Of a DNA stretch of 64,000 nucleotides, positions 13,711-49,700 are shown piece by piece (the first letter of the stretch is position 1; every line of letters starts with the position of its first letter). Made by a program: the position numbers and the translations under genes. Source of the stretch: Octopus vulgaris (taxonomy: Eukaryota); contig OX597815.1 in NCBI GenBank assembly GCA_951406725.2, forward strand, positions 25,358,001 to 25,422,000, written 5' to 3'. The notes below the pieces were generated by a model. The model was given only the letters and a program-made list of their open reading frames with translations. It did not search any database and was not told the DNA's origin.

Positions 13711-14071
13711 ATGGCGAGCGGTTACGTTTCTCTTTCTCGTCCGTTCTTCTTATTACTACTGTCGACTTTCTGTATTGCACTTAATAGCAATATTCGTGTT
13801 TGGCCTTTACCACGAAAAATAAACAGCTCCTCGAATCCACTGCAAATTCATCCGTACAGCTTCACGTTCACTGCAACATCCGAGTCTTGCGATGTTTTAG
13901 ATTCCAGCTTCAAGAGATGGTGGAAGAGAACTTTTATCAATTTAGAACCCCGTTTGAAAAAAACTTTCCAATATGAAACTAGTCAGTTTGATGTTCTCTC
14001 TAACTTGAATGTGAACGTTCGTCAATCATGCAACGGTGGAATGTACCCTTCACTTCAATCAGACGAGTCTT
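13711..14071 (+). CDS. HEXA/HEXB: Hexosaminidase coding exon 1 (signal peptide + N-terminal domain)
   Basis: [23 protein letters not shown] hydrophobic signal, VWPLP motif, ends YPSLQSDES+T then gtaagt donor (phase 1). Confidence 0.92.
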
Positions 14072-17000
14072 GTAAGTCATTTTTCCTATTTACTTTTTGT
14101 TTTAAACATTTCACTGAGTGCGTACATTTCGTCATACATATATATACATACACACACACACACACATATATATTCACACGCGCGCACACACACATATATA
14201 TATATACACACACATATATATATATACACACACACACACATATATATATATTCACACGCGCGCACACACACACACATATAATGAATGGGTGTTATATGAA
14301 TGGGTTATTGTTGTTTATGCTCTTATTGAGCAAAACTATTGTTTCTCAGCTCTATTTGTGATAATCCCGCCGTTTTTAATTAAATGATATGTACGCAGAC
14401 AGTTCTATACTTAAGAGATGAGGAATTACGTATATTATTTACATTTGACAGATATTTGTTCCGGCTAATATGCCCTCCAAGCCTTCATCCGGAGTCTTGG
14501 GGATTTTTCGAACTCAGGTATTTTTCGATTATTGTTATTATTATCCATGTCACCGTCTGGAATCGAATTTGGAACTTGGGGTTTGTAGCCCACGCTCTTA
14601 ACCTCTACGCCATATGCCCATGCGCAATTTTAGAGTAAATTTTAAAGATTTATAAGCCCTAAAATTCACTCCATAATTGCCCATGGATATATGACGTAGT
14701 GGTTAAGGCTACTAACCCCAAGATTCCAGGCAGTGACTTGAATAATAATAACATCGAAAAATACCTTAGGAATGAGAACCCAGGTTCCAAATTTCCCCAA
14801 GACACCTGACGAAGGCAGCGGGGTATATCAGACGTAACGTTGTGTTAATAACAAACAAAATGAAGACAAATAATATAAATGATATACATTATAGAATGCG
14901 TCCGTTTTTCGGATGATGGGTTAATTTGAAGGAAATTTGGCTGTTAATTGTATAAAATGTCAGAACAGTGCTTTGTATATCTATCAGCTCATTGAGGATA
15001 GCGTAATTAGTTTGATCTGATTTTGTCTGAGTTCAAATCCCGCCAAGCAGCGCCGGATTAACCATTAAGCAAAATAAGCATGTGCTTAGGGCATCAAGGG
15101 AAGGACGGGGCACTACTGAAATGGTAAATGGTTTACGGCACAAAAGAAATCACTTTAAACTTGCTAAAATAATATCCAGGATGCCTTTATCCCTACCAAG
15201 TATAGATGCAGATGTGTTACCCAAGATTAATTTTGAGGAAGCTTTTCAAATATTAAGTGAAAGTATACAAAAACAAACGTCATTTCCCCTCTTATTGTTT
15301 TGTTTTGAAGAATAAAAAGGCGGGCGTAAACAATGTGGACCGTACCGCCCCACTTGTTTTGTTTTTTTCACAGGATCCCCCATTTTCGAGCACGGGGATT
15401 CTGATTTTAAAATTTTAATTCCCTCACGTATTTTTCTACATATTTCATAAAAAATAAATAAAATTTTGAAAAAAGTGAAAATTGAAGAATTTGGTGGGGA
15501 AATTAAAATTTTGAAAAGCCGTTTTTTTGGGGTTTTTTTTTTGCAGAATCAGAATCTCCGTACTCGTAAATGGGAGTTTCTGTAAACAAAAAAAAACAAA
15601 CAACCAAAAACAAAAGAGGGTACAGTACATATACTTTATGTCCACCAAATAAAAATTTATTTTATGGTTTGTTATTGTTTATATTTTGAATTACAATCTT
15701 TTATGGGGGTACCAAAATCTTATAAATGCTTAGGGCCTCAATGGGTCTTAATCCAGCCCTGTCGCCAAGGTCAGTGGCAAGACTTCCTTTTGTACCCCCC
15801 CCCCCCACACTTTATTTTAAAGTTCAGCAAAGAGATTTGATTCAAATTGTCAACCTCTATCAGCAATTATGGTGAGAGGAGCTCCAAAACATGAAATCCA
15901 CCCTTTGCAATTGAGAGAGATGAAATGTCTTTGTTGGGTATGGACTTCAGGCCATCTAGAAAAATGATCTATACAGCTCAACAAATACATATTACCTTGA
16001 ACTAGTGGCAAGGGGTGCACAATATCTAATTGGATATGTTTAAAGCACTCGTCTGGAGTAACAAAAGTGCCCAAAGGTTTCTTGATGTGGCATTGATATT
16101 TTAGTTTTCTGGCACAATATTCAAGTAAATGCCCAATTACAAATGTCTTTTTGCATACAGGCACACACGAAGTGACTTGAAATTAATTTCACTGTTGCTG
16201 AAATACTGGGATGAGGTAAATTATGAAGAACCAAAAAAAAAAAAAGCATTCGCCTATGAATCTTAGGAACATATAGTCTGGAAAAACCTGATAGAAACGT
16301 CACACCAAACAAGAATCTGTAAAATGTAGTGATAGTAGATGGAAGTCTAATGAAGGTGAGTCCAACAATTGAAGAGGCAAAAATTTGTCATGTTGTTGAT
16401 CCAACACAATTTGCTGCAGTCACGCTAATGTGCATACAAGATAAGGTATCAGCTGCAGAATTATCTCTGCCCTTGATGTAATAAATATCAACAATGTATT
16501 GTGAAATGAAATCCAAATGTCATAGGTCTATGGGTGAATATTTATCAGTTTTCGATTGTAGAACAAAAGTCAATGGTTTATGATTGGTGAAAACTATGAA
16601 CTGTTGTTCCTCAAGAAAAAAAAAAAACATGTTTTACAGCTAAATAAGCAGCCAAAAGTTTTCTACTGAAGGTGCTGTACCTTGACTCTGCTGATTTGAG
16701 GTATTTGGAAAAGAAGGAAAGTGGTTGCCAAGCATTTAGAACAAACTGTTGTAAAACTCTGCCAATTCCTACATTAGATGCATCAATTATTAATGATAAG
16801 GCTGCCAAAAGTATAATTCTTGATAACTTGTCCTTAATATTCTCAAAGACTTGTAACTGAGTAGAATTTAATTATATAGGTTTATTTTTCATTTTCCTGT
16901 TATGTAAAAGTTCTGTGAGAAGAAAAATTGTCTCAGTACAATGTAGAATAAATCTTCAATAGAAGTTAAACTAAGAAATTTTCATAACTTCATTTGAGAA

Positions 17001-20000
17001 GAAGGAACTGGAATATCATGAATAGCATCAATCTTATTCTGTACTGAATGTGTTCAATCTTTATCAATTACATGTCCCTGAAAAATGATGGAAGAAACAC
17101 CAAAAACACATTTATTTGCTTTAATTGTCACACCATATTGCAACAGGTAAGTAAAAGTTGTTAAAATTGAAGTACCTGCTCCTCTTCTGTGGAACTGGCT
17201 ATTAATAAGTCATTGATGGAAGTGAAAACAAAATCTTGACCATGTGTGACTTCATCAGTAAATCTCTGAAAAGTATTAGTAGTGTTACATAGACCAAAAG
17301 GCATTCAAATAACTTCAAACAAACCAAAAGGAGTAGTTAAAGCAGTGTTAGGGATGTCCACCAGTTCAGTTGATGCATGCACTAAATCAATCTTTGAAAA
17401 AATTCAGAAGATAGGATGAAATGAAAGGATTATTTTCTGCGCCACATGAAGTTGAGGAAGAGTTATACATTAATTAATAAAATACATATTATTTATCTTG
17501 TGAAGGCACTTGGCTCACTGGTTAAAGTGTTGAGCTTATGATTATGGGGTTGTGAGTTTGATTCCTGGACCAGACTGTGTCGTGTTCTTGAGCAAGACAC
17601 TTTATTTCATGTTGCTCCAGTTCACTCATGTGTAGAAATGACTTGTGATGTTGCTAGTGCCAAGCTATATCAGCCTTTGCCTTTCCCTTGGATAACATCA
17701 ATGGCATGGAGAGGGGAGGCTTGTATGCATGGGCAACTTCTGGTTTTCCTCAAACTTGTGCCTAGGAGGAGAACTTTCTAAGTGCGATCCCATGGTCATT
17801 CATGAAACTTATCAGCATTGAAATGTATGTTATTTTCATCAGCCCATTTGTATATTACATGCAGGTCGTTTGGTAGTTTTACAATGTCATCAGAGAGCAG
17901 TTGCGGAGATGGGTGGAATGTTATTCCAAACTCTATGCCAAGGAGAACATCTTGGACAGTGTGCTAGTCACCATGGATCATCTACCTGTCATGGAAGAGC
18001 TAGACACATTGCTGACTGCTGAAGAACTGAGCAAAGTCATTGATGGGTTACCCACTGGGAAAGCACTCGAGATCATCAGGTGTACAAGAGATCTACTCAG
18101 CCACTTGCTGAAACTACTGTGTAAGTGCTGGGAGGAGGAAACAGCCCCGCAAGACAAGAGAGACTGCAACATTGTCACTCTTTATAAGAACAAAAGGGAC
18201 AGAAGTGACTGCAAAAGCTACTGAGGCATCTCACTGTTAAGTGTTGTCGGGGAAAGTCTTTGTTTGTGCAATCCTGAGTGTGGTTTCAGGCTAGAATGCT
18301 CCACCATTGACATGATCTTCTCTCTTAGACAGCTACAGGAGAAGTGCTGAAAGCAAAGACAACCACTCTACATCACCTTCATTGACCTCACAAAAGCTTC
18401 TGAGCTAGTTCAAAATCCTTGCCAAGACCTGCTGTCCTCCCAGACTTCTCAGAATTGTCCTGTTTCTGGTGGATATGAAAGGTGTTTAATTTGATGACTC
18501 TTCTTTGGAAGTGTTCAACATATGTTGGGGTGTGAAGCAGGGCTGTGTGCTTGCTCCCACCTTTCTTGGCATCTTATATACAGTCATGCTGAAGCATGCA
18601 TTTGAAGCATCAGCTGATGGTGCCTACTTCCAAACCAGGTCAGACGGAAAACTGTTTAGTTTGTTAAGGCTGAAAGTGAAATCCAGGGTTTGTCAGGCAC
18701 TCATCAGAGAAATGCTGTTTGTGGACAACGCAGTATTGACAGCGCACTCAATGAAGCAAATGCAGCACCTTGTGGACAAACTCCCAAGGGCCTGCTAGGA
18801 ATTCAGCCTGATTATTTGTCTGAAGAAAACCAATGTACAGGGCTATGTACTGAATCAAGCACCCCACCCCAAAACCATCAACAATTACAAGCTGGACCTT
18901 GAGATCAGCAGGTGAGTTGGATGTGCATCCTCATGTGCCAGGCTGATGAAGATACTCTGGGAGAACAGAAAACTGACCATAAAGAACCCCAAGATTGTTG
19001 TCTATAAGGCATGTAACTTCAGTACACTACTTTACAGCAGTGAGACATGAAGCCTCTATTCTAGACAGGAGTAGCATCTTGTCTTCCACCTTCATAACCT
19101 GAGTTGCATCTTGGATATCAAGTGAACTGACTGAATTACCAACACTGAAGTCCTCAACCATGCCAAGATACCCAGCATATTCACTCTGCTCCAACAGTGC
19201 TGTCTGTGCTGGCTCTGTCACACATATCATATGCTGAACTGGAGGATTCCCCAAAGAATTCTTGCATGGGGAAATGGCCACTGGTACAAAAGCATGAGGA
19301 TTACCTCTTTGTTTCAAGGATGAATGCAAGAGTTGCCTATAATTTTTAGGATATACTCTGCTTCCTCCTTTGTGGATAAGGCATATTATTCCCCACTTCA
19401 ATTTGCATAGGAGCTTACCATTTGCAAGGAAACTCTGAAAAAGAAGCTGCAGTTGTTTTGCAAGGGCTCATGTTCATGATTTGAGGATTGCTGAGAATCT
19501 ATCTGGGCCAGCAGATGAATTTGTGTCTACCTCATCTGTAGCCAATATTACATCTTGCTCTTTAATGTTGATGTAATCAATTATTATCACCTTGGTTACA
19601 GGTGAAGTGGCAAAGGACTCCACTGGTTTGTTCACTTGCCTGCGTCCCAAAGGGGTATTACAAAAACACTTTTGAACTGTTCGTTCAGTATTTCATTTAT
19701 CCCCATTGGGTTTCCTGTGAAGAAGCCATCATTTTGGAAGAGGAGTCCTACTTTGTAGCATACTGAGGCTGTTTCTTTGATCATGTGAAATTATGGTGGT
19801 TTGCTCATGGTATCTGACTGATTATCAAGCGATTAGGTTTTGAATCACTACTAAAGGAGCATATATTTGGCAATAGTTCCAAATGTAGATATATACCTTC
19901 CAACACGTATAACCACCACCCTTTTCTGTGTGCTATGTTATACTGGTACAGGTAGGTACAGGTAGGTGGGTCTTTTATAATGCTGTGTGTTACCAATGCT

Positions 20001-23000
20001 TTGTGGGAAGTGATCTTCAACATTGTGTGTCACTAATCACAAGATCCATCCACTTTGACTGCCCTGCAAGTCTTTATATAGATGTCATCTTTCATACGTG
20101 TGCCCATATCATTGCTGTCTTATCTCTTCCACTCTACATCCACTCCTGTATATATTCAATTTTTAATTTCTCATAGCTCATTTCTGTATATAACATTACA
20201 TATCCTACAGAACATGCTCACTTATTTCTTTCTAGACTTCATAAATCCTCTTCATTCAAGACCTATATCTTGCTACCAGGTTGCATCACAGTTTGTAATC
20301 ATCATCATCATTTAGCGTCCGTTTTCCATGCTAGCATGGGTTGGACGGTTCAACTGGGGTCTGTGAAGCCGGAAGGCTGCATCAGGCCCAGTCAGATCTG
20401 GCAGTGTTTCTACGGCTGGATGCCCTTCCTAACGTCAACCACTCCGTGAGTGTAGTGGGTGCTTTTTACGTGCCACCGGCACAGGTGCCAGACAGAGCTG
20501 GCAAACGGCCACGAATGGATGGTGCTTTTATGTGTCACCGGCATGGGGGCCAGGCGAGGCTGGCAACAGACGCGAGCGCATGGTGCTTTTACGTGCCACT
20601 GGCACGGGGGCCAGGCGAGGCTGGCAACGGACACGAACGGATGGTGCTTTTACGTGCGTCCTTCCTTGATAGCTTCTGGAAAGCCTTCGACAGCATCGAA
20701 ATCAACATAGTACTACAAGCTCTCAGGAAACAAGATGTGATAATGCAGTATGTCACCCTCCTTCAGGTGGCAAATACCGGGTGCACAACAAATGTAGCCC
20801 TGTTATCCTCACCAGTAAATGTTCTGGTGGAGAAGGGTGTTGAACTTTTCACATCATGTCTTGAGATGGTCATGCAATGTTTTATGCATGTGAGACGTGG
20901 GCCTTGATGAGGAGAGAATAACAGCTGCTTACGGTGCAGGGAGCCATGGATAGGTCAGTGTTGGGAATCTCACTAAGAGATCACATCTGGAATGAGGAGA
21001 TCAGGGATAGAACTGGAGCGAAGGATATCATTACAGAATACACCTATTTCTTTACTACCCACAAGGGGCTAAACACAGAGAATACAAACAAGGCCAGACA
21101 AATGGATTAAGTCGATTATATCGACCCCAGTGCGTAACTGGCACTTATTTAATTGACCCCGAAAGGATGAAAGGCAAAGTCGACCTCGGCGGAATTTGAA
21201 CTCTGAATGTAGTGGCAGACGAAATACGGCTGAACATTTCGCCCGGCGTTCTAACGATTCTGCCAGCTCACCGCCTTCTCACAGAATACCTATTTCTTTA
21301 TTACCCACAAGGGGCTAAACACAGAGGGGACAAACAATGATAGACATAGGTATTAAGTCGATTACATCGACCCCAGTGCATAACTGGTACTTAATTTATC
21401 GACCCCGAAAGGATGAAAGGCAAAGTCGACCTCGGCGGAATTTGAACTCTGAATGTAGTGGCAGACGAAATACGGCTGAACATTTCGCCCAGCGTTCTAA
21501 CGATTCTGCCAGCTCACCACCTTCTCACAGAATACCTATTTCTTTATTACCCACAAGGGGCTAAACACAGAGGGGACAAACAAGGACAGACATAGGTATT
21601 AAGTCGATTACATCGACCCCAGTGCGTAACTGGTACTTAATTTATCGACCCCGAAAGGATGAAAGGCAAAGTCGACCTCGGCAGAATTTGAACTCTGAAT
21701 GTAGCGGCAGACGAAATACCGCTGAGCATTTCGCCTGGCGTTCTAACGATTCTGCCAGCTCGCCGCCTTCTCATAGAATACCATCATGCAAAGCTATGGT
21801 GGATTGGTCATGTCACAAGGTTCACAGACAATCGGTGGACCTATGCAGTTGTTGAGTGGTACCCATGCAAATGGAAGTGACGATTTAGAAGACTTCCAGT
21901 CAGGTAGGAAGATGATTTAAGAAAGATGTTTGGAACAATGTAGGGGAGAATGGTGAGAGCACGAGGGGAATGGAGCAAATGCTTTAGTCTTTTTTTTTTT
22001 ATTTTGAGGCCTCTTAATTTTAGGTTTTGCTTCTTTGGAATTTCTTCTCTAAATCTTGGAATTCTCATGAGCAGTCGAGTTCGAATTCTGCCGAGGTCGA
22101 CTTTGCCTTTCATCCTTTCGGGGTTGATAAATTAAGTACCATTTGCATAGTGGGGTTGATTTAATCAACTAGCTCCTTCCCCAAAAATTTCAGGCCTTGT
22201 GCCTAGAGTAGAAAAGAATCTTAAACTTCTTTATAATCTGAAGGACTATAATGCTGGGTATTTAATCTAGGTGATGTGTTAAGATTACTTCGATGGTTCA
22301 GTGCACATTCACTACTAGGGCAGTTCAGAATTTCAGTCTCATTGGAAGCACATTACAATGGCCCAGTGGTTAGGGCAGCGGACTCGCGGTCGTAGGATTG
22401 CGGTTTCGATTCCCAGACCGGGCATTGTGAGTGTTTATTGAGCGAAAACACCTAAAGCTCTACGAGGCTCCGGCAGGGGATGGTGGTGATCCCTGCTGTA
22501 CTCTTTCACCACAACTTTCTCTCACTCTTACTTCCTGTTTCTGTTGTACCTGTATTTCAAAGGGCCGGCCTTGTCACTCTCTGTGTCACGCTGAATATCC
22601 CCGAGAACTACGTTAAGGGTACACGTGTCTGTGGAGTGCTCAGCCACTTACACGTTAATTTCACGAGCAGGCTGTTCCGTTGATCGGATCAACTGGAACC
22701 CTCATCGTCGCAACCGACAGAGTGCTTCCATCCACAATTTCATGCAGTTAACCTCCTGCTGCATTTTCTGCAATATTTGGTGTGCTGGTGTAAACCAAAT
22801 TTATAGTCTGGGCTGCATAGCTAACACACACTTACACACCTCTATCTGTCTGAATTTCTCTCTCTCACTCACTTACTCTCTCTCTCTCTCTTTTGCTGTT
22901 TATCTTTTTTTATGTATCTGTCTATCTTTGTGACTGTTACTTGAATATTTCACCATCTCATTAGTCACTCATGTAAAAATGTTATCTTTAAAATCATCAT

Positions 23001-23285
23001 CAGTTGTTATATATCTGTCAATCAACAATAAAAATGCTATTGAAAAATAAAAGCAAGTATTTTCGCAATGTGTAGTAAGTAGGATTTTTATTTAAACTTG
23101 ATATTGGTTTGTTTATAAATTTTTATTTCCAATCAAAATAGCAGAGGTATCATTTCAATATAAAGCATAACAAAACAAAACTTCACCTTTGTGTATTCAT
23201 TTTAAATTATGTTATAATTCACTGATTCCAACCAGAACTATAAGCAGCCAATTCAACTACAAATTCTTTGAGATCTTCCTCTCTC

Positions 23286-23379
<94 letters not shown>

Positions 23380-26300
23380 TTTCTCATTGCCTTCTTTTTT
23401 TTCATCTTCCGTACTACACATCCGGACCAATGTAGGAAGATATAATAGTAGTTTAAAAAGCATAAAGAACAAAATATTGAATAATCTTCTGTTTCATAAT
23501 CTAGAAATCTTATTTATTGAAGAATGTTTTGCATTTGAGTTGTTCTTTATCTCTAAATTCAGAACTGTTTTTTGAAGACAAGGTTTAGTATTCTTATCCA
23601 CTATGTTAGTGAAAAGCAGCAAAATAGTGATATTGATAAAGTAGACAAGGCAAGGATCAGAGGGACAGAGAGAAATGGCATGTTGTAGGGTAGGTGGTTA
23701 GAGTGTGGAGGCATAGTGCATGAGGGAGGTGAGAGATGTATGATGTGAAGAAAGAGAGATAATTTGGTGGCTTAGTGGGGTGATCAATGTAAAATGTTGG
23801 TGTAGAGGACAGTAGATGGATAAAAGAAGTGAAGTGATTCTGAAGACTGAGAAAGATTAGAACTTTTATTTTTAACAGAGAGAGAGAGAGATCTCGACAC
23901 CTCCACCACTCATCATCTCTCTAACTGTAGCTTTACCTTGCTACCGCTAATCTTTCTCAATCTTCAGAATCACTTCACTTCTTTCATCCGGCTAGTGTCC
24001 TCTCCACCAACATTTTACATTGATCACCCCACTAAGCCACCAAATTATCTCTCTTTCTTCACATCATACATCTCTCACCTCCCTCATGCACTATTCCTCC
24101 ACACTCTAACCACCTACTCAACAACATGCCATCTCTCTCTGTCACTCTGATCCTTGCCTTGTCTACTTTATCAATATCACTATTTTGCTTGTTTTTACTA
24201 ACACACATTATTGGACTCCTCCCCTCCTGCCCACCATTCACTACATTCACCTGTCAAAACCAGCTCTTCATTCTTTATTTTTTGCCCTATTTCCTCACCT
24301 ATTCCCCATCTCTCTTTCTCCCATATATTCTTGCAATATCTACCACCCACAGTCCCAGTTTCTCTGATCCCACTCACTTTTACTCACCTCTTACCTTGAC
24401 AGTACACCCAGCCCCCATTGCTTTCACCTTTGCCCAACTCCACTCAATCACTCCACACCCTCTCTTCTAAGATGTGAGTAGCTATGTAGCTTCTCTGCTG
24501 CAAAGAGTCTGTTCTGTTCTGGCTTCTTCTTATACTTTAAACCCATATCTAACATAAAGTCATTTCTTTCAGTGTTGTTCATAGTTATACAGATGACACA
24601 CAAAAAGCACCTAGTAACAAAGAAAAACAAAAGTACTAATGCAAAAATGCAATACGTATCAATACTCTAGCTGTCCCAGATATATGTCACAGTTATAATT
24701 TTAACTAGATACTAAATAAACCAGCAAGCCTAGACAGTTCAGTGTTTGTAGTTAACCTGGTGACACACAATAAAAGCACCCAACACACACAAAAAAAAAA
24801 TCACGAATGCGAAAATAACGGAAGTTAGTATCAATACTCTAGCTGTACCAGATATATGTTATAGTTATAATTTTAACTAGTCACTAAATAAACTAGCAAG
24901 CTTTGACAGGAAAACAAGGAAAATATTTAGAAATCTGACATAGAAAGATTATGTATACCTCAAATTCATAGCCTTACACAAATACAAAACTACTATAAAA
25001 ATATCTATGGGAAGACATGTGGTTTAGTGGTTATGGTATTTGGCCCACAACCGTAAGGTCGTGAGTTCAATACCTTGTGGCATGTTGTGTCCTTGAACAA
25101 GACACTTTATTTCATGTTGCTCCAGTTCACTCAGCTGGCAAAAATGAGTAGTACCTGTGTACTAAGGCCAGCCTTGTCACATTCTGTGTCACGCTGAATC
25201 TCCTTGAGAACTACATTAAGTTTACGTATGTCTGCAGAATGCTCAGCCACATGAAAATTAATTTCACAAACCGGTTTTGTTTTATGAATAAATTTGAACA
25301 CTGATCATCATAATTGAAGGAATGCCAAATATAAAAGTATCTGATTCAGAATCAAGAAAAATTTGATATAAATGGCTACAAAACATGAACAAAACAAACG
25401 GAAAATGTATCTGTCTTAAAGGAAGCTGAAAAATACAAAGCAAAGATATGAAAGAACAGGAGTAACAACAAAAATTGAAAGCAACTAACATCTAAACTGA
25501 AACTGTGATGACAAATTGCAATGATAAAATGATAGCAAGTAAAGCCTCTTCATGGCAAATGCTGGAATAAACTGAACAGAAAGGAAATAGATAAAGAAAA
25601 ATCACAACACTGACAGAGAAGCAGAAGACTCAGAGCAGAGACTGAAGGATTTTTCCATGTGGCACAAGACCAAAGCCTCTCCATCAGAAACCACCAGAAG
25701 CATAATGAAGCAGAATACAGTAACAGCATTATATGTGGGGATGAGGATGCAACTATGAACCTTAATATCTCTGGCTGTCCAGTCTTGGCCAAAGAAGAAT
25801 ATATCTGTGGACAGGACAAAGTTGGGACACCAACAAAAGCATAACAGTCACAACTGAAGCCAATGAAAGAAATTTGGGTAATTTAAGAATTGAGGAAGCT
25901 ATACTCATACGCAGACTAGGGCCCCAAATTAACAACGGTCTGGAGGCTGGTAATCAATATATTATTTAGCTACATCTGGATGCATGTAGGTTCATTTTTG
26001 ATAATATGCTCATTGGTAGTTTATAACAAAAAAAGAAAACAAAAAGAGAAGGGGAAAAAAAGGAAACTGCACATATATTACATAACTTAGAAGCAGCGCT
26101 ACGGATGTACCAGCACACATGAGATTGAGGCATGGCCGACCTCACGCAATTCTCATGAGGAATTCCGGAATGAGACCACTGTTGAGATGCTTCAAAAAAA
26201 ATAATAAAGAAGAAAAGCCGTTGGAAAACCGATTATAGCAGCGACTCCATCTAAGAATATCTGAAGAAGGAATTTTATTCCGAAATATCATATCAGACAA

Positions 26301-29300
26301 TGAATGACTAAATTACAACAGGCATATAGTCCATTATTTGTATTATAGTGCATTGTTGTACCATTCAAAACTTTTTATTCTTTACAAACAATACACAATG
26401 CTTCAAGCAAACTACAATGCTCTCCTATATATATATATATATATATATAAAAGTGAAGTTGTGTGAGTGTCTGTCTCCTACGATTTAGATTCCTAACTAC
26501 TCCCACATTTTGCGGTGCAGTTTAACCAAATTCGGCTATCTTATAGTCATGATTCATATCGAGCCCGTCTGGGTATTAGCGCGCGTCTACGATGAGTCTA
26601 CGATTTTAAAAATAATTTAACATCATTGTTTTCCATTTCTTCCAATTTTTTCGTGTGTCGATGGCGGCGGAGTTGGCGTCCATGCTCACACCTGCACCTG
26701 TGTTGCTTCTCCCCCTTCTTACCTCCCTCGTGAAGCTGTGGGGAAGGCAGGGTAGGGAAATCAACATCGTAAAGCGTTGTCAAGGAGACCAGTGTTCTTT
26801 TAGAACGACTTCATGGCTTGAAGTCGCCAAAACAGAAATCGCTAAAAAAGCTGAAACAGATCCAAAAAAACGGCAAAAACCGCCACACAGGGCAGGTTTC
26901 CTGTGTAAACAATTTGCACAACCGAATGTTTTAGTTGTTGCACAAATCTTTATATATAAAAGTGAAGTTGTGTGTCTGTCTTCTACGATTTAGATTCCTA
27001 ACTACTCCCACATTTTGCGGTGCAGTTTAACCAAAACCGGGTATCTTATAGTCGTGATTCATATCGAGCCCTTCTGGGTATTAGCGCGCGTCTACGATGA
27101 GTCTACGATTTAAAAAAAAATTACCATCATTTTTTCCATTTTAATGCATTTTTTCGCCATTATATAAGGGAAGTAACTCTCTAAAAATGTCTACGATGAG
27201 TCAACGATTAAAAAAAAATTACCATCATTTTTTATTCCATTTTTAATGCATTTTTTTGCTATTTTTTTGCTATAACTCACTAAAAATGCTTATATAGTTA
27301 TTTCCCTTACAAACCCGAGCAACGCCAGGCGATACTGCTAGTACATATAAATATCAGTGTGCTTTTGTTCATATCTGATTCATTGTATGTATCTGCATTT
27401 GTTAGAAATTAAGTGCCTCATGGGCAGATATATTTCACAACTGACTATAAATTAAGACATAATGTAGTCTAATCTTAAAATTTACATATCTTTAAATTGT
27501 AACTGTACTAATTTGAGGCTTTCAACAACCTTGTAGTACCCCACTCAACGGAGATAAGTACTGCAAGATTGTTAAAGCATTGTGAAATGCTATCAGAATC
27601 TGTTAGGCAAGTTCTGCTTTGGCATGATTTCTATGACTGAAGGCCCTTCCAAATGCCAACCACTTTACAGAATGTATTGGGTATTTTTTACTTGGCACTG
27701 GTACCAACAAGGCCACCAGCTTGCAAAACCTTTCAAAAACTCTTGTCAAACCATTCACTACATGCCAGCATAGAAAACAGATCTTAAATGATGGTGATGA
27801 TGATGATGCGACATACCCCTTCACATGCATCGAAATATATGCTAAGGGTATATATTTTTTAAAAAATATATCAAAACACTTCTACACTACTTCTAGGCTT
27901 TCCATTTTTATTTTCATCAAATTTTTGCTAAAAAAATTTACAGAGATTTAAACATGACATTTAAACATGACAAATGAAGTGAGTTCATTGCTCGCAGGAT
28001 GGCCTGCTGTGCTAACCTCGGATTGTAGAGTGACCCGCTGTTCTTGAGGAGACCTGTTGAGTCAAGAACGTCAACGTCAAAATAAAAATTCAAATGGAAA
28101 TTGTAGTTAAGACACCCATGCCGGTGACGCGTAAAAAGCACCGTCCAAACGTGGCAGATACTAGCACCGCCTGACTGGCGTCCGTGTCGGTGACACCTAA
28201 AAGCACCAACCAATCATGGTCATTTGCCAGCCTGCTCTGGCCCCTGTGCTGGTGGCACGTAAAAAACACCCACTACACTGATGGAGTTAGAAGGGCATCC
28301 AGCTGTAGAAACACTGCCAAATCAGACCACAGCCTGATGCAGCTTCCATGGCTTGCCAGATCCCGGTCGAACCGTCCAACCCATGCTAGCATGGAAAATG
28401 GACGTTAAATGATGATGATGATTTATTTGTGAGCATGCAATATTGTAATATTCAATACATTTTGACATATCTTTACATGTATGTTCATCCAGTCCAAAAT
28501 GCTTTACTCTGAAAACTTTGTATTCTTAATCTACAGTTGTCATTCTAGCAGTGGTTATTTTCTTTAGGTCATTGTAGTGTATCAGTTTCCTGGCTCTCAT
28601 TAACTCTTCACTTAATTATATCTTACATTGTTTGTATTCATTAGCTATTCAAATCTAAATCAACTCTTTGATTCCTTAGCACTGGCACATTTTCTGATAA
28701 ATCTGAATCGTGTTGGCTAGTTCACTACTGCCTCTGATTAATTCTTAACCACATAGGTTTTCTTCATTCTGAAGTAATCACTTCTAACTCACCAGTATGT
28801 ATGTGCATGCTATAGCAATACATTCTTTACTAAAATAAACAAAGCCTAAATAAATAAATAAATAAATTCAGGGTGAATACTTGATAAATGTAAGCACCTG
28901 TATATACCAGCTAGTAGCATAGGTGAGAGGATATATGTATCAAATGAAATAAAATGAAAAACAGGACACAAAGGATGTTGCGGTACATATGTTTCGAGCT
29001 TTATAGAACAACTTATTCTTACATCAATGCATAATCGACATAACAGATAGTTCAAAAGCCCTCTTCAGCCGCATGCAATTGCTACACCAAAGACTTGTAT
29101 CACATTATGAAAGGTTTGAGAAAGAACATTTGGTATTATTTATAATGGTAGGTAAACCAAGTTACAAACATACTTTCCCAGTGATACTCGGTTTACCTAC
29201 CATTATAAATAATACCAAATGTTCTCTCTCAAACCTTTCATAATGTGATACAAGTCTTTGGTGTAGCAATTGCATGCGGCTGAAGAGGGCTTTTGAACTA

Positions 29301-32300
29301 TCTGTTATGTTGATTATGCATTGATGTAAGAATAAGTTGTTCTATAAAGCTCGAAACATGTGTACCACAACATCCTTTGTGTCCTGTTTTGCATTTTATT
29401 TCATTTGATACATATAAATAAATATGTGAGCCATTTTTTTTTTTTTTTGACAATAAACTATTTGCTGTAATGTATAAATATAAACAAACATTTGTTTTTA
29501 TAAGCATTGAAATGTGTATAGAATGATACAAATAAGATATTTTTCTGAATGCAGATTGCCATTAGAACAGCACTCCCATGGCTGGTCGCTGAAACATTTT
29601 TCTGCCTTGTAAGGGTAATGTACCCAGTATTTCTGCTGTTCTAATGGCAATTTTGCATTCGAAAAAAATCATCTTATTCGTATCATTCTATTTGCTGTAG
29701 ATTTTTAAATTTTATATACTTATGTATTTTAATTATTTTTATGTTCTATGATGAGTTGTTATTAAATTAAAAGAACAAAAACTTTTTAAAAATAAACAAA
29801 ATAGTTTTATGACTTAGCTTTTTAGTACATTGGTGAATATGATTTCTCACATTGTAGAAAGTCAAATTATAGGACATCAAGCAATTATTTCAGTTTTCAT
29901 TAGGTCATATGATGTTATGTAATTTACGAGTTAATTACATAAAAGGCAAATTAGCAGAGTGATTAGTACATTTATTAGAATGTCTTGTGATACTTGTTCC
30001 ATCCTATATTCATTCTGAATTTAAATGCCACCAAGTTCAACTTTGCCTTTCATCTTTTCAGAATCAATAAAAAGTACCAATCGAAGATAGTGGATTGGTG
30101 GAACTATAAGAAAATGAGAATAGATGCCTTGTGGTGTTTGTTCTGGTGCTTTATGTTTCTGAGTTGCGATTGTATCATGGCCTACATGGATGGTAGACTT
30201 TATTCATCACCTTGTCTAACACCACCATCTGGTAACTTCGATGTCTTTAGCAGTCTCATCTCTGTTGCAAACTTTCTTACCAGATCTCTGATTTGAGAAC
30301 TTCCTCCCTCCTTTCCACCAAGCTTGGAGGCCTTGTAAAGGGTCATGGCTGCTACATTCTTCCCAATAATAATAATAAAATTGAAAAAATGCATCAGTGG
30401 ATGTTTCACCACAATATTTCACACCCTTCATCAGTTATTTGTTGGAGATAATCACAATGTCAGAACTTTCTCACAGCATCATCCCTACAAGTGGTACTTA
30501 TTAGCATTGATGCTATCAGATGATGTGTGGGTTATTTTAGCCCATTCTGTAGTTTGCTTTTCCCTCTGTCATCCATGCATCCACCACAACAATCTAGGTA
30601 AATCACTCCAGCTATACAGGAATTACTTCATTAACAGAAAATATGTTATTTGCTCTCAATTTTGATCCCTCTTTCACATGTCTCAGCCACATCTATGATA
30701 GAACATTTTCTGCTTCTCTCTTCAGTTCATGAATTGTTTCTCTGTTCATAAGTTCACTACCGGCCAGGTAAGACATTATAGGTCTAGCCACAAGCCCATG
30801 ATAAACCACGTCTACTGGAAGTATCATACACTGCCATCCCAGTGCCTCACATGATTCTCTAATCTCTCTATGTATAAAGCTGAAGTTGTCTGTGTATGGC
30901 AGGTTTGGTAGCCTTCAACTAACACTATCTCCTCCGAGACCCTATGCCGCAAGTTGACCAAAATTGAGAGTATGATAGAAGAAGGCTTGCTCTTCTTTCT
31001 GTAGAAGAAAAAATTCAAATTGGACCATGTTAACACCAAAAATTATTTACATAAAAATGGGGCTTTTTTTCTATGAAAATCCCTATTTTTTACTATTTTT
31101 AAACTGCAGTGTCGCCATTTTTTGGTGTATTTCAACCCGAAAAATGTTCACTTAAAGAGAATAACAAGCTACATAATGCAACATTTTTACTTTTCAAAAA
31201 TTCCAATTCTAAAGGGTTGAAACGAACCTGAGGCAATGCCAGGCGATACTGCTAGTTCTTTTATATTTTCAGGCTCCTCCTTACCTGTGCTCTCTTCATA
31301 TTGCTTTTCCAATTCACCATTAACTCAGCAATTAGAACTTTTTTGTAAAGTTAGACTATACCAGAATGTCAAGATGATCCTTTATTATTGCAGTATGGTT
31401 TAGGAGCATGAATGCTTCCTTCAAATTTACCTGCACCGTTCACTCATAAGCAACCTTTCCTTGTTTATTCTCCTGCATTGTCCTTTCCGTGCTTCCATCT
31501 GAAAAAACAAGATGCAACTTTGTGTTTGATTCTTACAGCATTGCTGTTTAGTGTTATGGCTATAGGCATACACTGCAAAGAACGATTTGCATGTTACCAA
31601 AACATTTTCCAGTGATGCACAGCCATCATATTGGTGACAATCAGTAGTGTCAATTCAGCCTTTCCATCAAATAATGGTTGAATATAGAAACACATCATAC
31701 ATCACTCTCAGGTAGACTCATAGCCTAGTTGATTCCATCTTCCATAACATGAACTATTTAGTTTCTTTCATTCGCAGGAGTGGCTGTGTGGTAAGTAGCT
31801 TGCTAACCAACCACATGGTTCCGGGTTCAGTCCCACTACATGGCATCTTGGGCAAGTGTCTTCTGCTATAGCCCCGGGCCGACCAATGCCTTGTGAGTGG
31901 ATTTGGTAGACGGAAACTGAAAGAAGCCTGTCGTTTATATGTATATATATATATGTATGTGTGTATGTGTTTGTATGTTTGTCTCCCTAGCATTGCTTGA
32001 CAGCCGATGCTGGTGTGTTTACGTCCCCGTCACTTAGCGGTTCGGCAAAAGAGACCGATACAATAAGTAATTTCAGTAAGAGTGTTTTTATTGATCTATT
32101 TTCAAATCTTACTGAAAAGATTATATAAGCAAATGAAAAATTTATATTGCACAAAGAAATCGGGGTCGATTTGCTCGACTAAAGGTGGTGCTCCAGCATG
32201 GCTGCAGTCAAATGACTGAAACAAGTAAAAGAGTATACTATTCATGTACATTGGCTTTATTTCCTTATTGCACTCCTCATCCATGTGACAAATATTTTGC

Positions 32301-33414
32301 CAGCCTTTGTTATTCTAGCAGAGATATTGCAGTCACATCATCATACACAGATTAAGTGGTGTCATTGATAACACTTCCACAGCAAGCAACAAGGAACACT
32401 TTCTACTTCATGTGACTGACATGCACTAACAACATGTGGTAAAATTAACAACATGGCTGTATAGTAAGAAGTTTGCTTCCCAAGCACTTTGCTCCAGGTT
32501 CAGTCCTACTGCGTGGCACCTTGAGCAAGTATCTCTTACTGTAACCCTGAACTGACCAAAGCCTTGTGATAGGATTTGGTAGGCTGAAATTGAAAGAATC
32601 ATATTGTTAGTGTGTGTGTGTGTATGTGTGTGTAAAATACACACACACATATATGTATGTAAGGCAGCGAGCTGGCAGAAACGTTAGCACGCCGGGTGAA
32701 ATGCATTGCCGTATTTCATCTGCCGTTACGTTCCGAGTTCGAATTCCGCCGAGGTCGACTTTGCCTTTCATCCTTCCGGGGTCGATAAATTAAGTACCAG
32801 TTACGCACTGGGGTCGATGTAATCGACTTAATCCATTTGTCTGTCCTTGTTTGTCTCCTCTGTGTTTAGCCCCTTGTGGGTAGTAAAGAAATATATATAT
32901 GTATGTATGTATATATCTTTGTGTGTGTCATTGCATTTGTGTTTGTCATCCACCACCACCACTTGACAAGTATTGGGTTTAAAATATACTCTTAGAATGA
33001 TCGAATTCAAACAAGATAAAATACATATTAAAAAAGTGTTCAAGTTCTTGTGGGTTTGGTGATTACCCACAAACACACATACACATGCAAGACACAAAAA
33101 CACACGCATAAACATATACAGACATATCTAATGAAGGATAAAATTTTTTTCAAAAAAAAAAATATATATTATTTTTCAAAAAAATTTTATTAATGGCCAG
33201 CATATCAAAAAATACCTTTAAAGGTTAAATCTATAAACAATTCATAATTAAGGGCAAACGAAAAAATTTCTAATGCCAGATATGCCGAAAAATTGGACAT
33301 ATTGTCCATTAACCATATAATTTTTTCACAATATGCACGCTACTCGAAAAAAGGTCGACAGAAATTTCTAAAACATTCCATTATTACCATATCGGACCGA
33401 TTTCATATACAGAC

Positions 33415-33452
<38 letters not shown>

Positions 33453-33508
33453 CATCATCATCATCATCATCATCGTTTAACGTCCGCTTTCCATGTTAAA
33501 CGATGATA

Positions 33509-33541
<33 letters not shown>

Positions 33542-35825
33542 TGGCACATAAAAAGCACCCACAACACTCACGGAGTGGTTGGCGTTAGGAAGGGCATCCA
33601 GCTGTAGAAACACTACTAAATCAGACTGGAACCTGGCACAGCCTCCTGGCTTCCCAGACTCCGGTTGAACCGTCCAACCCATGCTAGCATGGAAAACAGA
33701 CGTTAAACGATGATGATGATGATTGATATATATATATGCACACATTTCAAAGTTTAAAATATTTGTTGAAAATCTATTTTTATTATTTAGATCTGCTTGT
33801 GATCAAAGCTGATGGTGCATCAACATTAGTTGCTACTACAGTTTGGGGTGCACTCCATGGCTTGGAAACATTTAGCCAACTTGTATATGAAACTGAAAGT
33901 GGAACGGTAAGTGCAGTAATAATTTATTTCTGAATTATTCCTTGAAGTACTTTTATCATGAACAAATGATGAATGATAGTATTTTAATCCAAGGATTTGT
34001 TAAATAACTTTGCTAGTTATATCATCCTTCTCCAGGTATCCAGTCACTTGGTGTGATTCAGATTAACCCTTTCGTTACCAACCTGGCTGAAACTTTTTCT
34101 CTCAGATTTTGTAAATATCCCAATTCAATTGAATGAATTTCTTGTTTAACCCTTTCGTTACCAACCCAGCTGAAACCAACTCAGGCTCTGTAGTACAAAT
34201 GTCTTGTTTTCATAAGTTTTGAATTAAAATCTTCCACCAAACCTTAGTCACAATTTATGTTCCTAACACTAGCTTAATGATAACTTAGTTATTTTACTAA
34301 ATTCTTTGTTATATTTAAAGTAATTGAAAGAAACACAGAGCATCTCAAAATAAATACAGTAATGAAAGGGTTAAGGTTAGAGATATGATAGGCCTACTGG
34401 TCCTGATTCGTAATGTCATATATTGTAATATTCTGTATTTGATATTTTTTTTTACAGTTGAAACATCTTACTGAAATACTTTCTCCAAATCTACAAAATG
34501 TTGACTACAGCATTTGTTTGAGAGATTATGAATATCGGGAGATTTTTTTTTTTTTTACATATTTCCATTTTTGTTTTTTTATTTCACTTGTTGAGACTTG
34601 AGGAAGGATCTGTGACCATGGCATCTGCAGGCTTCTAAGGTTTGTGGGATCAATGTAGATGACATTTTGTTTAAACTGTTGCGAGTCAATACCTGCAGGA
34701 AAGATGTAGAGGTTCTGGAAGATGATAATTTGTTGGGAGAAAAGACTTGGGACACTGATTAATGTTAAGTTTGATGGGGCAGGACACAGAGTAAGTGATG
34801 AAAAGAGGTGGGACAAGTGAGTCAACAGTGCCTGAGACCAATCATCTCTGAGGAATAGAGGCTATTTTAGCTATGGAGAAAAAGTAGAAGAGACAACCAG
34901 TCTGTGGGGCAATGGCTGGAGCATGTCTGTGAGTCACTTTATGCCAGTTATTTGAATGGTCTTTCTTTGTGTGTGCAACAGCTGTACCATCCTAAATATG
35001 AGTAATATTCCATAGTAGGCCTCACATGAGCTTTGTTGAGTGTCTCTAATTGTTGAGACTAAACTATTTTCTAGCCCTAAAGAGAAAGGCCAATCTTTGA
35101 GATGTGGTCCTAGTTATGTTAAGGACATACTTTTACCAAAGGATAAATACTTTACTTGCTACAAAGAAAATGGGTGTGTAAAATTCAAAATCATGAAGAG
35201 GACAAAGGAAGAAAAATGATTAAGTAAAAATGAAGAATGAAATCCATTCATCTTCTTTGCTCACTATTCCTTGGATGGTTGTTGGGGTAGCTGTCCTCAA
35301 GCTACAATTCCATAGGGTCTTATTGAAAGCAACTTTCATTAGACATTCCAGTATGTCCCCAAGCCTGACCAACTGAGATTATGGATGTTATCCAATCATT
35401 TCATTCTTGGCCTACTCCCAGGTCTCCTGCTGATTGGTTTGGCTTGAAGAATCCATCTTGCAATACTTTCCTGCAGCATTCTAATCGCATGTCTATAGTA
35501 CCAGAGCTGTGATTTCTCAAAGTGGAAAAGTAGCGGCTCAACCTGCTACGTCTCCACAACCTGAGCTATGCATCTTGTCAAGTAATGTTACTCTAGAGAT
35601 CCTTCAGAGGAACCCCATTACAGCTCTTTTACTTGTTTCAGTCATTTGACTGTGACCATGCTGGAGCACCGCCTTAGTCGAGTAAATCGACCCCAGGACT
35701 TATTCTTTGTAAGCCTAGTACTTATTCTATCAGTCTCTTTTGCCGAACCGCTAAATTACGGGGACGTAAACACACCAGCACCAGTTGTCAAGCGATGTTG
35801 GGGTGACAAACACATACACAAACAG

Positions 35826-46753: not shown

Positions 46754-49700
46754 ATGTGTAAAGTAACAGTTTAGATTTTAAAAAACCATTGCTTTCATAT
46801 CTAGCATGAACTAGACATATCTTCAGTTCCTCTAAACGATAACTGTTCTCTGCAAGGAATGATTTTTTTTTAAACACAAGAACATCAGTAACAGTTCAAG
46901 AAATATTCCTCTTAAAAAATTATGGCCAGGCAACCTAACTATCAATAGTTAGGTTTTCCAATATATAAAAGACAGACAAAATGTTGCTAAGCATTTTGCC
47001 TTATATGCTAATAATTCTACCAGTTCATCACAGTAATAATGATAATGATAATAATAATAATTTTTTGTATTTTTGTTCTGACTTCATTAACAGGGAGCAT
47101 GTAAAAGTCAACCCCCTATTTTTGGCCAAAAATTTAAGAATTTTCCATTGACCCTGCATAAAAGTCAACCCTAGTTTTTCACAAACAACAGGATAACATT
47201 TGTGGGTCAAGGTACTGTATTATCCTGTACATAGAAATAACACTGTTACAAAATTGTGTGGCTACTTTACTGTAGCCTGCACTATAGATGTAATACATGG
47301 TACTTATAATGGAATGCTCAATGCTTATAGTAAAATGCCATTTAATAGCGAGCACTACATATCTATTGATGGGTGCTACATTACTATTACTAAAATGTAT
47401 GCACAGGATATGCTGCAAGCCTGCATACATCTTGCAGCACAATAAACACATGCACCATACACTCATTTACATGACGAGAAATGTGTTTTACAGACAGCAC
47501 TATTGGTGAACACTGGCAAATGCCACTGTCTGAATTCTTACAAAGGCATGACTTTGGTAAGCCTAAAAACATTCAATTAGTCACTAGATCAGTGGTTCCT
47601 ATGCGACCTTTATATTTTCCTCATTTCCAAATACAATAAATACATGCATTATATGCTTGTCTGTTTACATGGTGAGAACATGTTTCACAGACAGCACTAT
47701 TCATAAGTTCAATACCCCAGTTGTCACATCCTAGATGTTCTGCTGGATTAAAGATATTTCTCTACTATGAAACATCACACTTCTCACTCTGCCTTTCATA
47801 TGGTGAGGAACTCTTTGTTAGCAACAAAGACTACAACTCCCAAAACTGATTAATTTCTTATAACTCTGTATTGTAGCTTCTGTACTTTCGGCAAGTCATC
47901 TAGCTTGTAGAGACTATTTACTACATCTTATGAGTTATTTGAGCAATTTGTAGACTTCATTTCATAGATGAGCCTTCCACTAACTACTTCTATACAGCTG
48001 TAGCAGAAGCATGATCACTCTTTACCTTTGGCTACCCACATTGTGGCTCTTGACTTTTGGTTACCTATTTTTGGGTCATCACATAATGGTCAAGTCCATT
48101 TACCTTTACTCAGACTGTCCATCCCTTAGCATGATAGACTAGCCAAGTGTCTCGACATCAGTTATTTAAGGGACGATTTTCCTCCTTAATTCCTTAGGGA
48201 GGAGAGTTTACTATGAGCAAGTTTTGGATCTTCAACAATGAGAGCAGTGTATTCCACTTTGTAGTTTCAGCAAAAACAGAATTGTAACCAGAATCCTTGA
48301 TGTTATGCTTTGTGTCTTTCCAACATTTCATCTTCAACTTCTAGAAACCTTTGACAATTATTCAAGTTCTATCAGTTTGCTTTTATTCACTTTAGCAACA
48401 GTAATAAATGTTGCAGTGTGGTCAACTTCAATTTGCCTTTGTATTTTCTTATTGATATCCATCCTGACTTATATTAACCAAAAGACTTAACATTAACAGG
48501 CCTTAAACCACATTGCATTGCATTTCATACAACAACCCAACATTTGCTAAATTCTATCAATTCTGAAGTCTTTTGTTACCTGTTAGTGCCAGGGACCCAC
48601 TGCATCTTTCTTGTACTCATTGCTTGCATTTTGCACACAACATCAAATTCTTGATTATGTCCTTCCTAAATATCAATTAAAACGTATCAAAATTACAATG
48701 CTAACTTCCCAGTTAACATTTACATTTTGTCTTCTCCCCTATTTGTTTGTGATTTTGTCTTTGCCATGTTGATCTTTCTGAAATAAAAGCCAGATATTAT
48801 CGTGAATTAAAATTTTGATTATTTTTGGGGTGGCATAGTCTTGCAAGATGCATGACAACCTCACTATTGTCAGTGGCATGGAAAAGCACCCAATACTCGC
48901 TGTAAAGTGATTGGTGTTAGGAAGGGTACCCAATCGTAAAAACCATGACAAAGCAGACACTGGCACATGATGCAGCCCTTAGACTCATTGGATCCTATCA
49001 AACGACCCAACCCATGCCAGCATGGAACATAGACATTAAATGATGATGATGGCGGGTGCTACTGCTAGATAAATAGATTCTAATTACCTAAATCTGTTTT
49101 TGTCATATCAATTTGATTTTAAAATTTATTGGTAGAATTCATAAATTCATGCATTTTCTGTTTATATGTAATCATTTCTTTTAGGCCATACTTTATCCTG
49201 GGGTAAATCTCACAAAGAACTTCTTACTCCATGTTACCAATATGCATCTGAGAATGGTAAATATGGTCCTGTCAATCCAATTTTGAATTCTACATATGCC
49301 TTTATGAAGAAGTTTATTTATGAAATTAGTATGATGTTTCCTGATAAATATTTCCATGCTGGGGGAGATGAGGTTAACTTTGATTGTTGGTAAGTATTGT
49401 TGTTCAATTTGTCATAATCATACTTGATAGTTTTATATTTTAATTCAAGTTTGGGTCTTTAATAATTTTGGTATGTCTCATTTGAATTGCTGTCTTTTTG
49501 CAACATTTTTTTCAACAGTGATTTGGAAAACTATGGTAAAGCAGTTGAGAATAAATTAAACCAAAATAAGAGGAAAAGAAGAAAATTTTACTTTATATAG
49601 CCATCTATTTTCACTGCCCAGTATTCTTGGAGATGGGATCATAGGAGTAGAGTCCTCAGGCATTGCTTCCTTAGGGTCCTATCAGAAAAAAAAACACTAA

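Follow-up and report, generated by a model that had tools for sequence, protein, structure and literature searches.

A two-hammerhead palindrome in an Octopus vulgaris hexosaminidase intron is very probably a head-to-head pair of Penelope-like element ends

Introduction

Metazoan Penelope-like elements (PLEs) carry minimal type-I hammerheads with a 5-bp helix I, a 7-bp helix II, and a palindromic loop 3; in vitro, these showed no cleavage as monomers and low cleavage as dimers, and PLE fragments hold dual minimal hammerheads on opposite strands, 100–700 bp apart (PMC4209133). Inverted, 5'-truncated copies with a tail at one end have been described for PLEs (PMC8557442), as have head-to-head pseudo-long terminal repeats (pLTRs), for which self-priming was proposed (PMC3846280). 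Opposite-strand hammerhead pairs (PMC4209133) and inverted pLTRs (PMC8557442, PMC3846280) are thus already in print. Frangieh et al. reported that, in vitro, a protein of the element Poseidon cleaves AT-rich DNA on both strands and that reverse transcription starts at two sites bounding the tail; a dimer was predicted (PMC11167929). The Hydra clade of PLEs, defined in section 11 of PMC8557442, is described there with a CxCx5C linker, CxxC/CxH, and RWK-like and DKT motifs.

Here, we analyzed a 64,000-nucleotide stretch of Octopus vulgaris DNA (GenBank assembly GCA_951406725.2, contig OX597815.1, positions 25,358,001 to 25,422,000, forward strand; hereafter the window, numbered from its first letter), which contains a palindrome with a hammerhead motif in each arm. 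The palindrome very probably consists of two 5'-truncated pLTR 3' ends of a PLE family with Hydra-type motifs; they meet head to head within a (TAAA)n tract and probably arrived in a single insertion event. It is an ordinary and common PLE footprint, that is, debris of the element.

Results and Discussion

Extent and structure of the palindrome

The inverted repeat has two arms of 231 nt, at 28932–29162 and 29186–29416, which are approximately 97% complementary and separated by a 23-nt spacer. An initial annotation of the window, made from its letters alone, had described a 485-bp palindrome; the arms are as given there, but the insertion is longer, and the supposed loop is family sequence. 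Comparison of the flanks at 30 loci showed that the left copy runs 70 nt past the palindrome edge, to 28861. This tail (28861–28931, minus strand) is found in the left arm only at this locus and is common to many copies of the family. The 23-nt spacer is upstream sequence of the Penelope-like family and belongs to the right copy. Numbered from the hammerhead cleavage site, family mapping places the left copy (28861–29162, minus strand) at −179 to +122 and the right copy (29162–29416, plus strand) at −203 to +51, where it stops at the short 3' end of the family. The head-to-head junction (29160–29185) comprises 1–3 nt common to both copies at 29160–29162 and the 23 unpaired nt by which the right copy extends farther in the 5' direction. 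The insertion contains no open reading frame (ORF). Its target was the (TAAA)n tract at 28847–28860 (plus strand), whose last 10 bases reappear at 29415–29424, a possible 10-bp target duplication that, lying inside a microsatellite, cannot be placed with certainty.

Palindromes are a known hazard in genome assembly, a point that counts for a fold-back chimera. However, the arms differ at 6 of 231 positions, their 3' ends are different, and their flanks are unrelated; moreover, the 3'-end rule described below holds at dozens of loci. The structure is almost certainly not an assembly artefact.

Hammerhead motifs in both arms

Both arms contain the 5' strand of stem I, the CUGAAGA core, stem II with a GAAC/GUUC extension, GAAAC, a 4-nt loop, and GUA. 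The motifs (28979–29073, minus strand, and 29275–29369, plus strand) point outward, and cleavage is predicted after 28984 (minus) and after 29364 (plus). The core and stems in both arms bear out the earlier proposal of one outward-pointing Penelope-type minimal type-I hammerhead per arm, and the cleavage positions given with it agree with our prediction. The motif described for each arm is exact on the left, where all stems are intact and loop 3 is AUAU; the right motif departs from it, with an AUGU loop and CCACA in stem I, producing a C-A mismatch. The AUGU loop still self-pairs via G-U (−6.0 kcal/mol for the 8-nt duplex versus −7.0 kcal/mol for AUAU). The motifs share the helix I and helix II lengths and the palindromic loop 3 of the published PLE hammerheads (PMC4209133); unlike those, helix II here holds a 52-nt insert with its own hairpin.

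The hammerhead call is weakened by two results. An Rfam search of 27000–31500 gave no hammerhead at E ≤ 1, returning only sub-threshold microRNA hairpin models, and each hammerhead folded alone was not better than shuffled sequences (z values of −0.23 and +0.99). When 17 related motifs retrieved from other loci were aligned, core columns did not vary, 93.6% of the stem cells were paired, 12 of 14 pairs showed two-sided change, and loop 3 was self-complementary in 33 of 34 cells across several sequences. Because most rows had been pre-filtered on stem I/II pairing, the self-complementarity of loop 3 is the sole unselected test in this alignment. The assignment as a hammerhead is based on the exact core and the pairing kept in related motifs, rather than on activity. 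For sequence scans in general, the locus is a caution that PLE ends mimic designed RNA switches. A further hammerhead-like motif was observed at approximately 46770–46832 of the window (minus strand); it is close to that of Hydra-1_Obim in the supplement of PMC8557442.

The arm as the pLTR of a Hydra-type Penelope-like family

The arm is a dispersed repeat with 1285 first-look candidates, of which 40 were scored, the best others being 95–97% identical. The family is biased toward its 3' end, with candidates falling from 1285 for the arm to 200 for the middle part and 37 for the part approximately 900 nt upstream (first-look candidates, which are not copy numbers). Upstream of the arm, these two parts are followed by a low-complexity stretch and then by the end of an ORF. 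The arm lies downstream of, and on the same strand as, a Hydra-type reverse transcriptase (RT)/GIY-YIG ORF at loci L248, L255, L137, L258, L249, L252, and L259, with arm identities of 91% at L248 (to the left arm), 92% at L255, and 87% at L258. L137 (G000:C27) has the entire order of tail piece, ORF start, RT, endonuclease, 3' region, and hammerhead end. In L137 and L257, the same tail as in the left arm of the window continues into the ORF start, and a pLTR stands at both element ends (5' end, tail part only). These linkages show that the arm is the pLTR (3' end) of an ORF-bearing Hydra-type Penelope-like family. An apparently fixed 5' end of a 1-kb unit was rejected as the limit of the element; it is merely the edge of the low-complexity stretch, and the element continues to the ORF.

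The ORF contains the motifs RRIRW, PADK(I/T)G, YRDDA, CxCx5C, YIG, CxxC, and CxH. Compared with the clade motifs, RWA stands in place of RWK; the window family has DKI, and a sister family (see below) has DKT. A CCHH motif was not noticed by eye in the endonuclease translations, which were viewed without a reference alignment. The canonical hammerhead and the (TA)n target bias, both traits of the Hydra clade, are present, as are the C-terminal endonuclease, the CxCx5C linker, RW and DK(T), and CxxC/CxH of the clade as described in PMC8557442. Differences from the Hydra clade PLEs described there are an Asn-rich ORF insert, a low-complexity 3' region, a DKI motif where the clade has DKT, and a span in L137 of approximately 6–7 kb, secondary insertions included, versus <3 kb. 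Hydra-1_Obim from Octopus bimaculoides (PMC8557442) has another hammerhead sequence, and the window family seems distinct from it.

Several observations weigh against this picture of the parent element. Assignment of the ORF to the Hydra clade relies on shared motifs and on visual comparison with the reference sequences rather than on phylogeny. Pfam gave only a sub-threshold RVT_1 match for the ORF and no match for that of the sister family. Among the examined copies of the window family there was no intact ORF, the longest open stretch being 384 aa, and the ORF-linked arms were 81–92% identical to the window arm, versus 95–97% for the best arm matches. Since the ORF-linked arms are more diverged and the examined ORFs are broken, these ORF copies are only candidate sources of the enzyme that produced the youngest copies.

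Recurrence of head-to-head pairs with variable breakpoints

A 22-nt hammerhead pattern had at least 100 exact matches at at least 90 loci, and the 90 loci were all mapped, anchored on the 3' half of the hammerhead. Among the 100 matches listed, ten pairs pointed outward, spaced 50–1323 bp, and no inward-pointing or tandem pair within 1.5 kb was found. An adjoining head-to-head inverted piece was present at 47 of the 90 mapped loci; the inverted piece extended across the cut site at 30, and two whole hammerhead spans were present at 13, including the window locus. L014, with discontinuous inverted pieces, was dropped by hand, which lowered the script counts from 31 to 30 and from 14 to 13. As one of at least 13 two-hammerhead palindromes from one retrotransposon family, the window locus has little weight alone. 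The 3' flanks were microsatellites at 81 of 90 loci, versus 17% of control 25-mers.

The layout recurs, but its breakpoints differ. The 5' ends of copies scatter from −21 to −947, and 28 pairs give approximately 26 different layouts. The window junction had one exact match in the genome, namely, itself. Six matches with two mismatches were found, as many as the six in a reversed control, and L397, a single same-strand copy, was the sole family sequence among the genomic six.

These results bear on the initial interpretation as a young, non-coding fold-back element of a non-autonomous, retrozyme-like class. On such a reading, a PLE enzyme would copy the entire palindrome in one piece after its transcription and cleavage by its hammerhead. 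Such elements have a precedent in PLE-derived non-autonomous retrozymes (10.64898/2026.07.22.740005); the non-LTR retrozymes described there share with the window locus a type-I hammerhead, PLE pLTR ancestry, and the absence of an ORF. Pieces without an ORF also far outnumber ORF copies, with no intact ORF of the family among those examined. In addition, two junctions nearly recur among the 28 pairs (L318/L334 and L266/L325; arms 88–89% identical, flanks unrelated), which also counts against the reading favored here. By contrast, retrozymes consist of same-strand units in tandem, each carrying a hammerhead, whereas the window copies are inverted, single, and variable in length, and no same-strand hammerhead pair within 1.5 kb was found among the 100 matches listed. 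Nor did fixed ends and a junction repeated at many loci emerge; the window junction matches exactly only itself, near matches are at control level, and the layouts vary. The sense hammerhead is also predicted to be masked in the full RNA. Because breakpoints vary and the window junction occurs once, the palindrome is not a self-copying fold-back element; that interpretation is largely refuted by the single-copy junction and is extremely improbable. The part of it that attributed the structure to a PLE enzyme is supported. At L325 (G000:C24:40584569–40587590), a short palindrome of the window family occurs twice, side by side.

Formation of the inverted pairs

Of the 30 pairs that span the cut site, 28 combine an arm ending near +52 with an arm ending near or past +121 (binomial p ≤ 4e-7). 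This long/short 3'-end rule was also seen in 10 of 11 pairs of a tail-anchored set. The 5' breakpoints of the two arms are coupled, lying ≤25 nt apart in 15 of 28 pairs versus 5.1 expected (0 of 20,000 permutations as high), and 16 of 28 junctions show overlap (microhomology). Arms within one palindrome are somewhat more alike than arms across loci (93.7% versus 90.4%, n = 10, p = 0.006).

In the reading that we favor, two truncated pLTR ends joined in one insertion event, the RT-endonuclease of the element would cut both target strands. Reverse transcription would then be primed at two places: from one target end at the end of the tail (+122), and from the other target end at an internal, ATATA-containing end (+51); both cDNAs would stop early (−179 and −203) and join through 1–3 common bases. 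Each arm has a hammerhead because the hammerhead lies 50–120 nt from the 3' ends of the element. The window family shows 5' truncation, inverted 5' copies, and a tail on one end, all traits of endonuclease-bearing PLEs. Like the inverted pLTRs described for such PLEs (PMC8557442, PMC3846280), the window copies are head to head with a tail at one end, a (TA)n-type target, and a microhomology junction. The tail is longer (approximately 70 nt versus 30–40 nt in the published insertions) and, unlike in those, both copies are too truncated to leave an ORF between them.

The inversion could instead have arisen by self-priming (fold-back) of one strand, as proposed in PMC3846280, or by post-insertion trimming of the hairpin center, without two primings, and the coupled 5' ends count in favor of such a process. 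Nevertheless, at the window locus, as in 17 of 28 pairs overall, the arm lacking the tail extends farther 5' than the arm that carries it, so that neither can simply have been copied from its partner. With additional 5' sequence in one arm and additional 3' sequence in its partner, the window locus cannot result from plain fold-back of a single strand. The long ORF-bearing copies of the sister family, moreover, keep the long/short rule in five of six resolvable cases. We therefore regard self-priming or trimming in place of two primings as rather unlikely.

The coupling of breakpoints may reflect coupled synthesis, a hybrid route in which fold-back is accompanied by a second, tail-located priming, or trimming of the hairpin center at a later stage. 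A tentative possibility is that a two-headed RT-endonuclease primes both cut ends at two fixed sites (tail and ATATA), the coupled cDNAs stopping within approximately 25 nt of each other in half of the pairs. Breakpoint coupling of PLE inverted repeats was not found stated in the openly accessible Penelope literature, as judged from listings. Both the long/short rule and the breakpoint coupling are relevant to the unsettled mechanism by which PLE inverted repeats originate. If the proposed route is true, PLE palindromes are a record of integration, and an intact sister family would allow the process to be rebuilt in vitro.

Two further candidate explanations were considered. The first was ribozyme-cut RNA as template; 5' ends at −9 to +6 are in weak excess (8 of 66 versus 3–4 expected, p = 0.014–0.04), confounded by TA microhomology there and by a bigger cluster near −280. 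The second, suggested by the family mapping, was that the +52 site blocks tail-started cDNA; it was rejected on the tail-anchored set, in which 11 of 28 5' ends lie at +5 to +49. The larger cluster, at −273 to −302, contains approximately a quarter of the 66 5' ends and lies beside a TATAT stretch, likely reflecting microhomology with (TA)n targets.

Sister and neighboring families

A sister family (L198–L213; e.g., G000:C4:50166200–50176100) has the hammerhead, tail, and inversion pattern of the window family, resembles it at 72–77% across the tail and the 3' half of the hammerhead, and carries intact, near-identical 836-aa ORFs. An inverted 5' pLTR piece is present in 7 of 16 long copies, and copy L205 has an uninterrupted run from a whole hammerhead to the ATG. 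Among named database entries, its closest relatives come from molluscs, Argonauta among them. In this family, the genome contains a Hydra-type PLE that appears to be young and retains intact ORFs. A third family has ORFs of approximately 1090 aa that are rich in Asn (L216, L217).

At L091, a Neptune-type ORF of 755 aa that lies between two pieces of the arm was considered as the parent and rejected, because it is part of a separate repeat whose inverted ends measure 900 bp (2434 candidates). This repeat seems to have landed in the TA tract of a window-family copy. The ORF with its flanking ends occupies L091 1690–6960; the ends hold a hammerhead-like core, a U3-A8 variant by eye, and the top matches of the repeat often include head-to-head pairs.

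Host intron and predicted RNA

The insertion lies in intron 1 (14072–33790, plus strand; 3' limit approximate) of a beta-hexosaminidase gene of family GH20 (13714–61700, plus strand), between exon 1 (approximately 13714–14071) and exon 2 (approximately 33790–33905). Exons were located near 13714, 33790, 37400, 39690, 44808, 49184, and 61676; the exon 1 match is weak by itself (E = 0.05), and the GH20 exons are above the Pfam cut-off.

Read-through RNA would carry only one sense hammerhead, transcribed after its complement. Folding of the 571-nt region predicted a hairpin of approximately −398 kcal/mol with a pair probability of 0.0 for hammerhead stems I and II. Forming the hammerhead would cost 139–152 kcal/mol relative to the hairpin, even in transcripts ending just past the cut site; in isolated arms, the cost was 2.7 kcal/mol (left) and 10.2 kcal/mol (right). 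Because the antisense arm is transcribed first, the sense hammerhead would be sequestered. The earlier suggestion that the 3' arm is trimmed to release a defined hairpin RNA is not supported by these predictions; the hairpin penalty and the weak cleavage of minimal hammerheads in vitro (PMC4209133) make trimming unlikely. The insertion is predicted to be a passenger in the hexosaminidase intron, with RNA that folds as a 231-bp hairpin masking the ribozyme.

The intronic hairpin could plausibly serve as double-stranded RNA for ADAR editing or for small RNAs. One could go further and propose that debris has become a double-stranded RNA element kept by the host as an ADAR substrate, small-RNA source, or splicing modulator; its place within a plus-strand gene, its stable 231-bp hairpin, and the within-palindrome likeness of arms are consistent with this. 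However, the same hairpin and likeness are expected of any young inverted insertion, and at least 12 other such loci exist, making host retention very unlikely.

The same intron contains a second long inverted repeat (window 23604–24203), with 257-nt arms of 95% identity 86 nt apart, in which a motif scan found no hammerhead. Elsewhere in the window, we observed three tandem 246-bp units resembling a short interspersed nuclear element (21042–21782) and a long endonuclease/RT remnant resembling a long interspersed nuclear element (57200–60300, minus strand).

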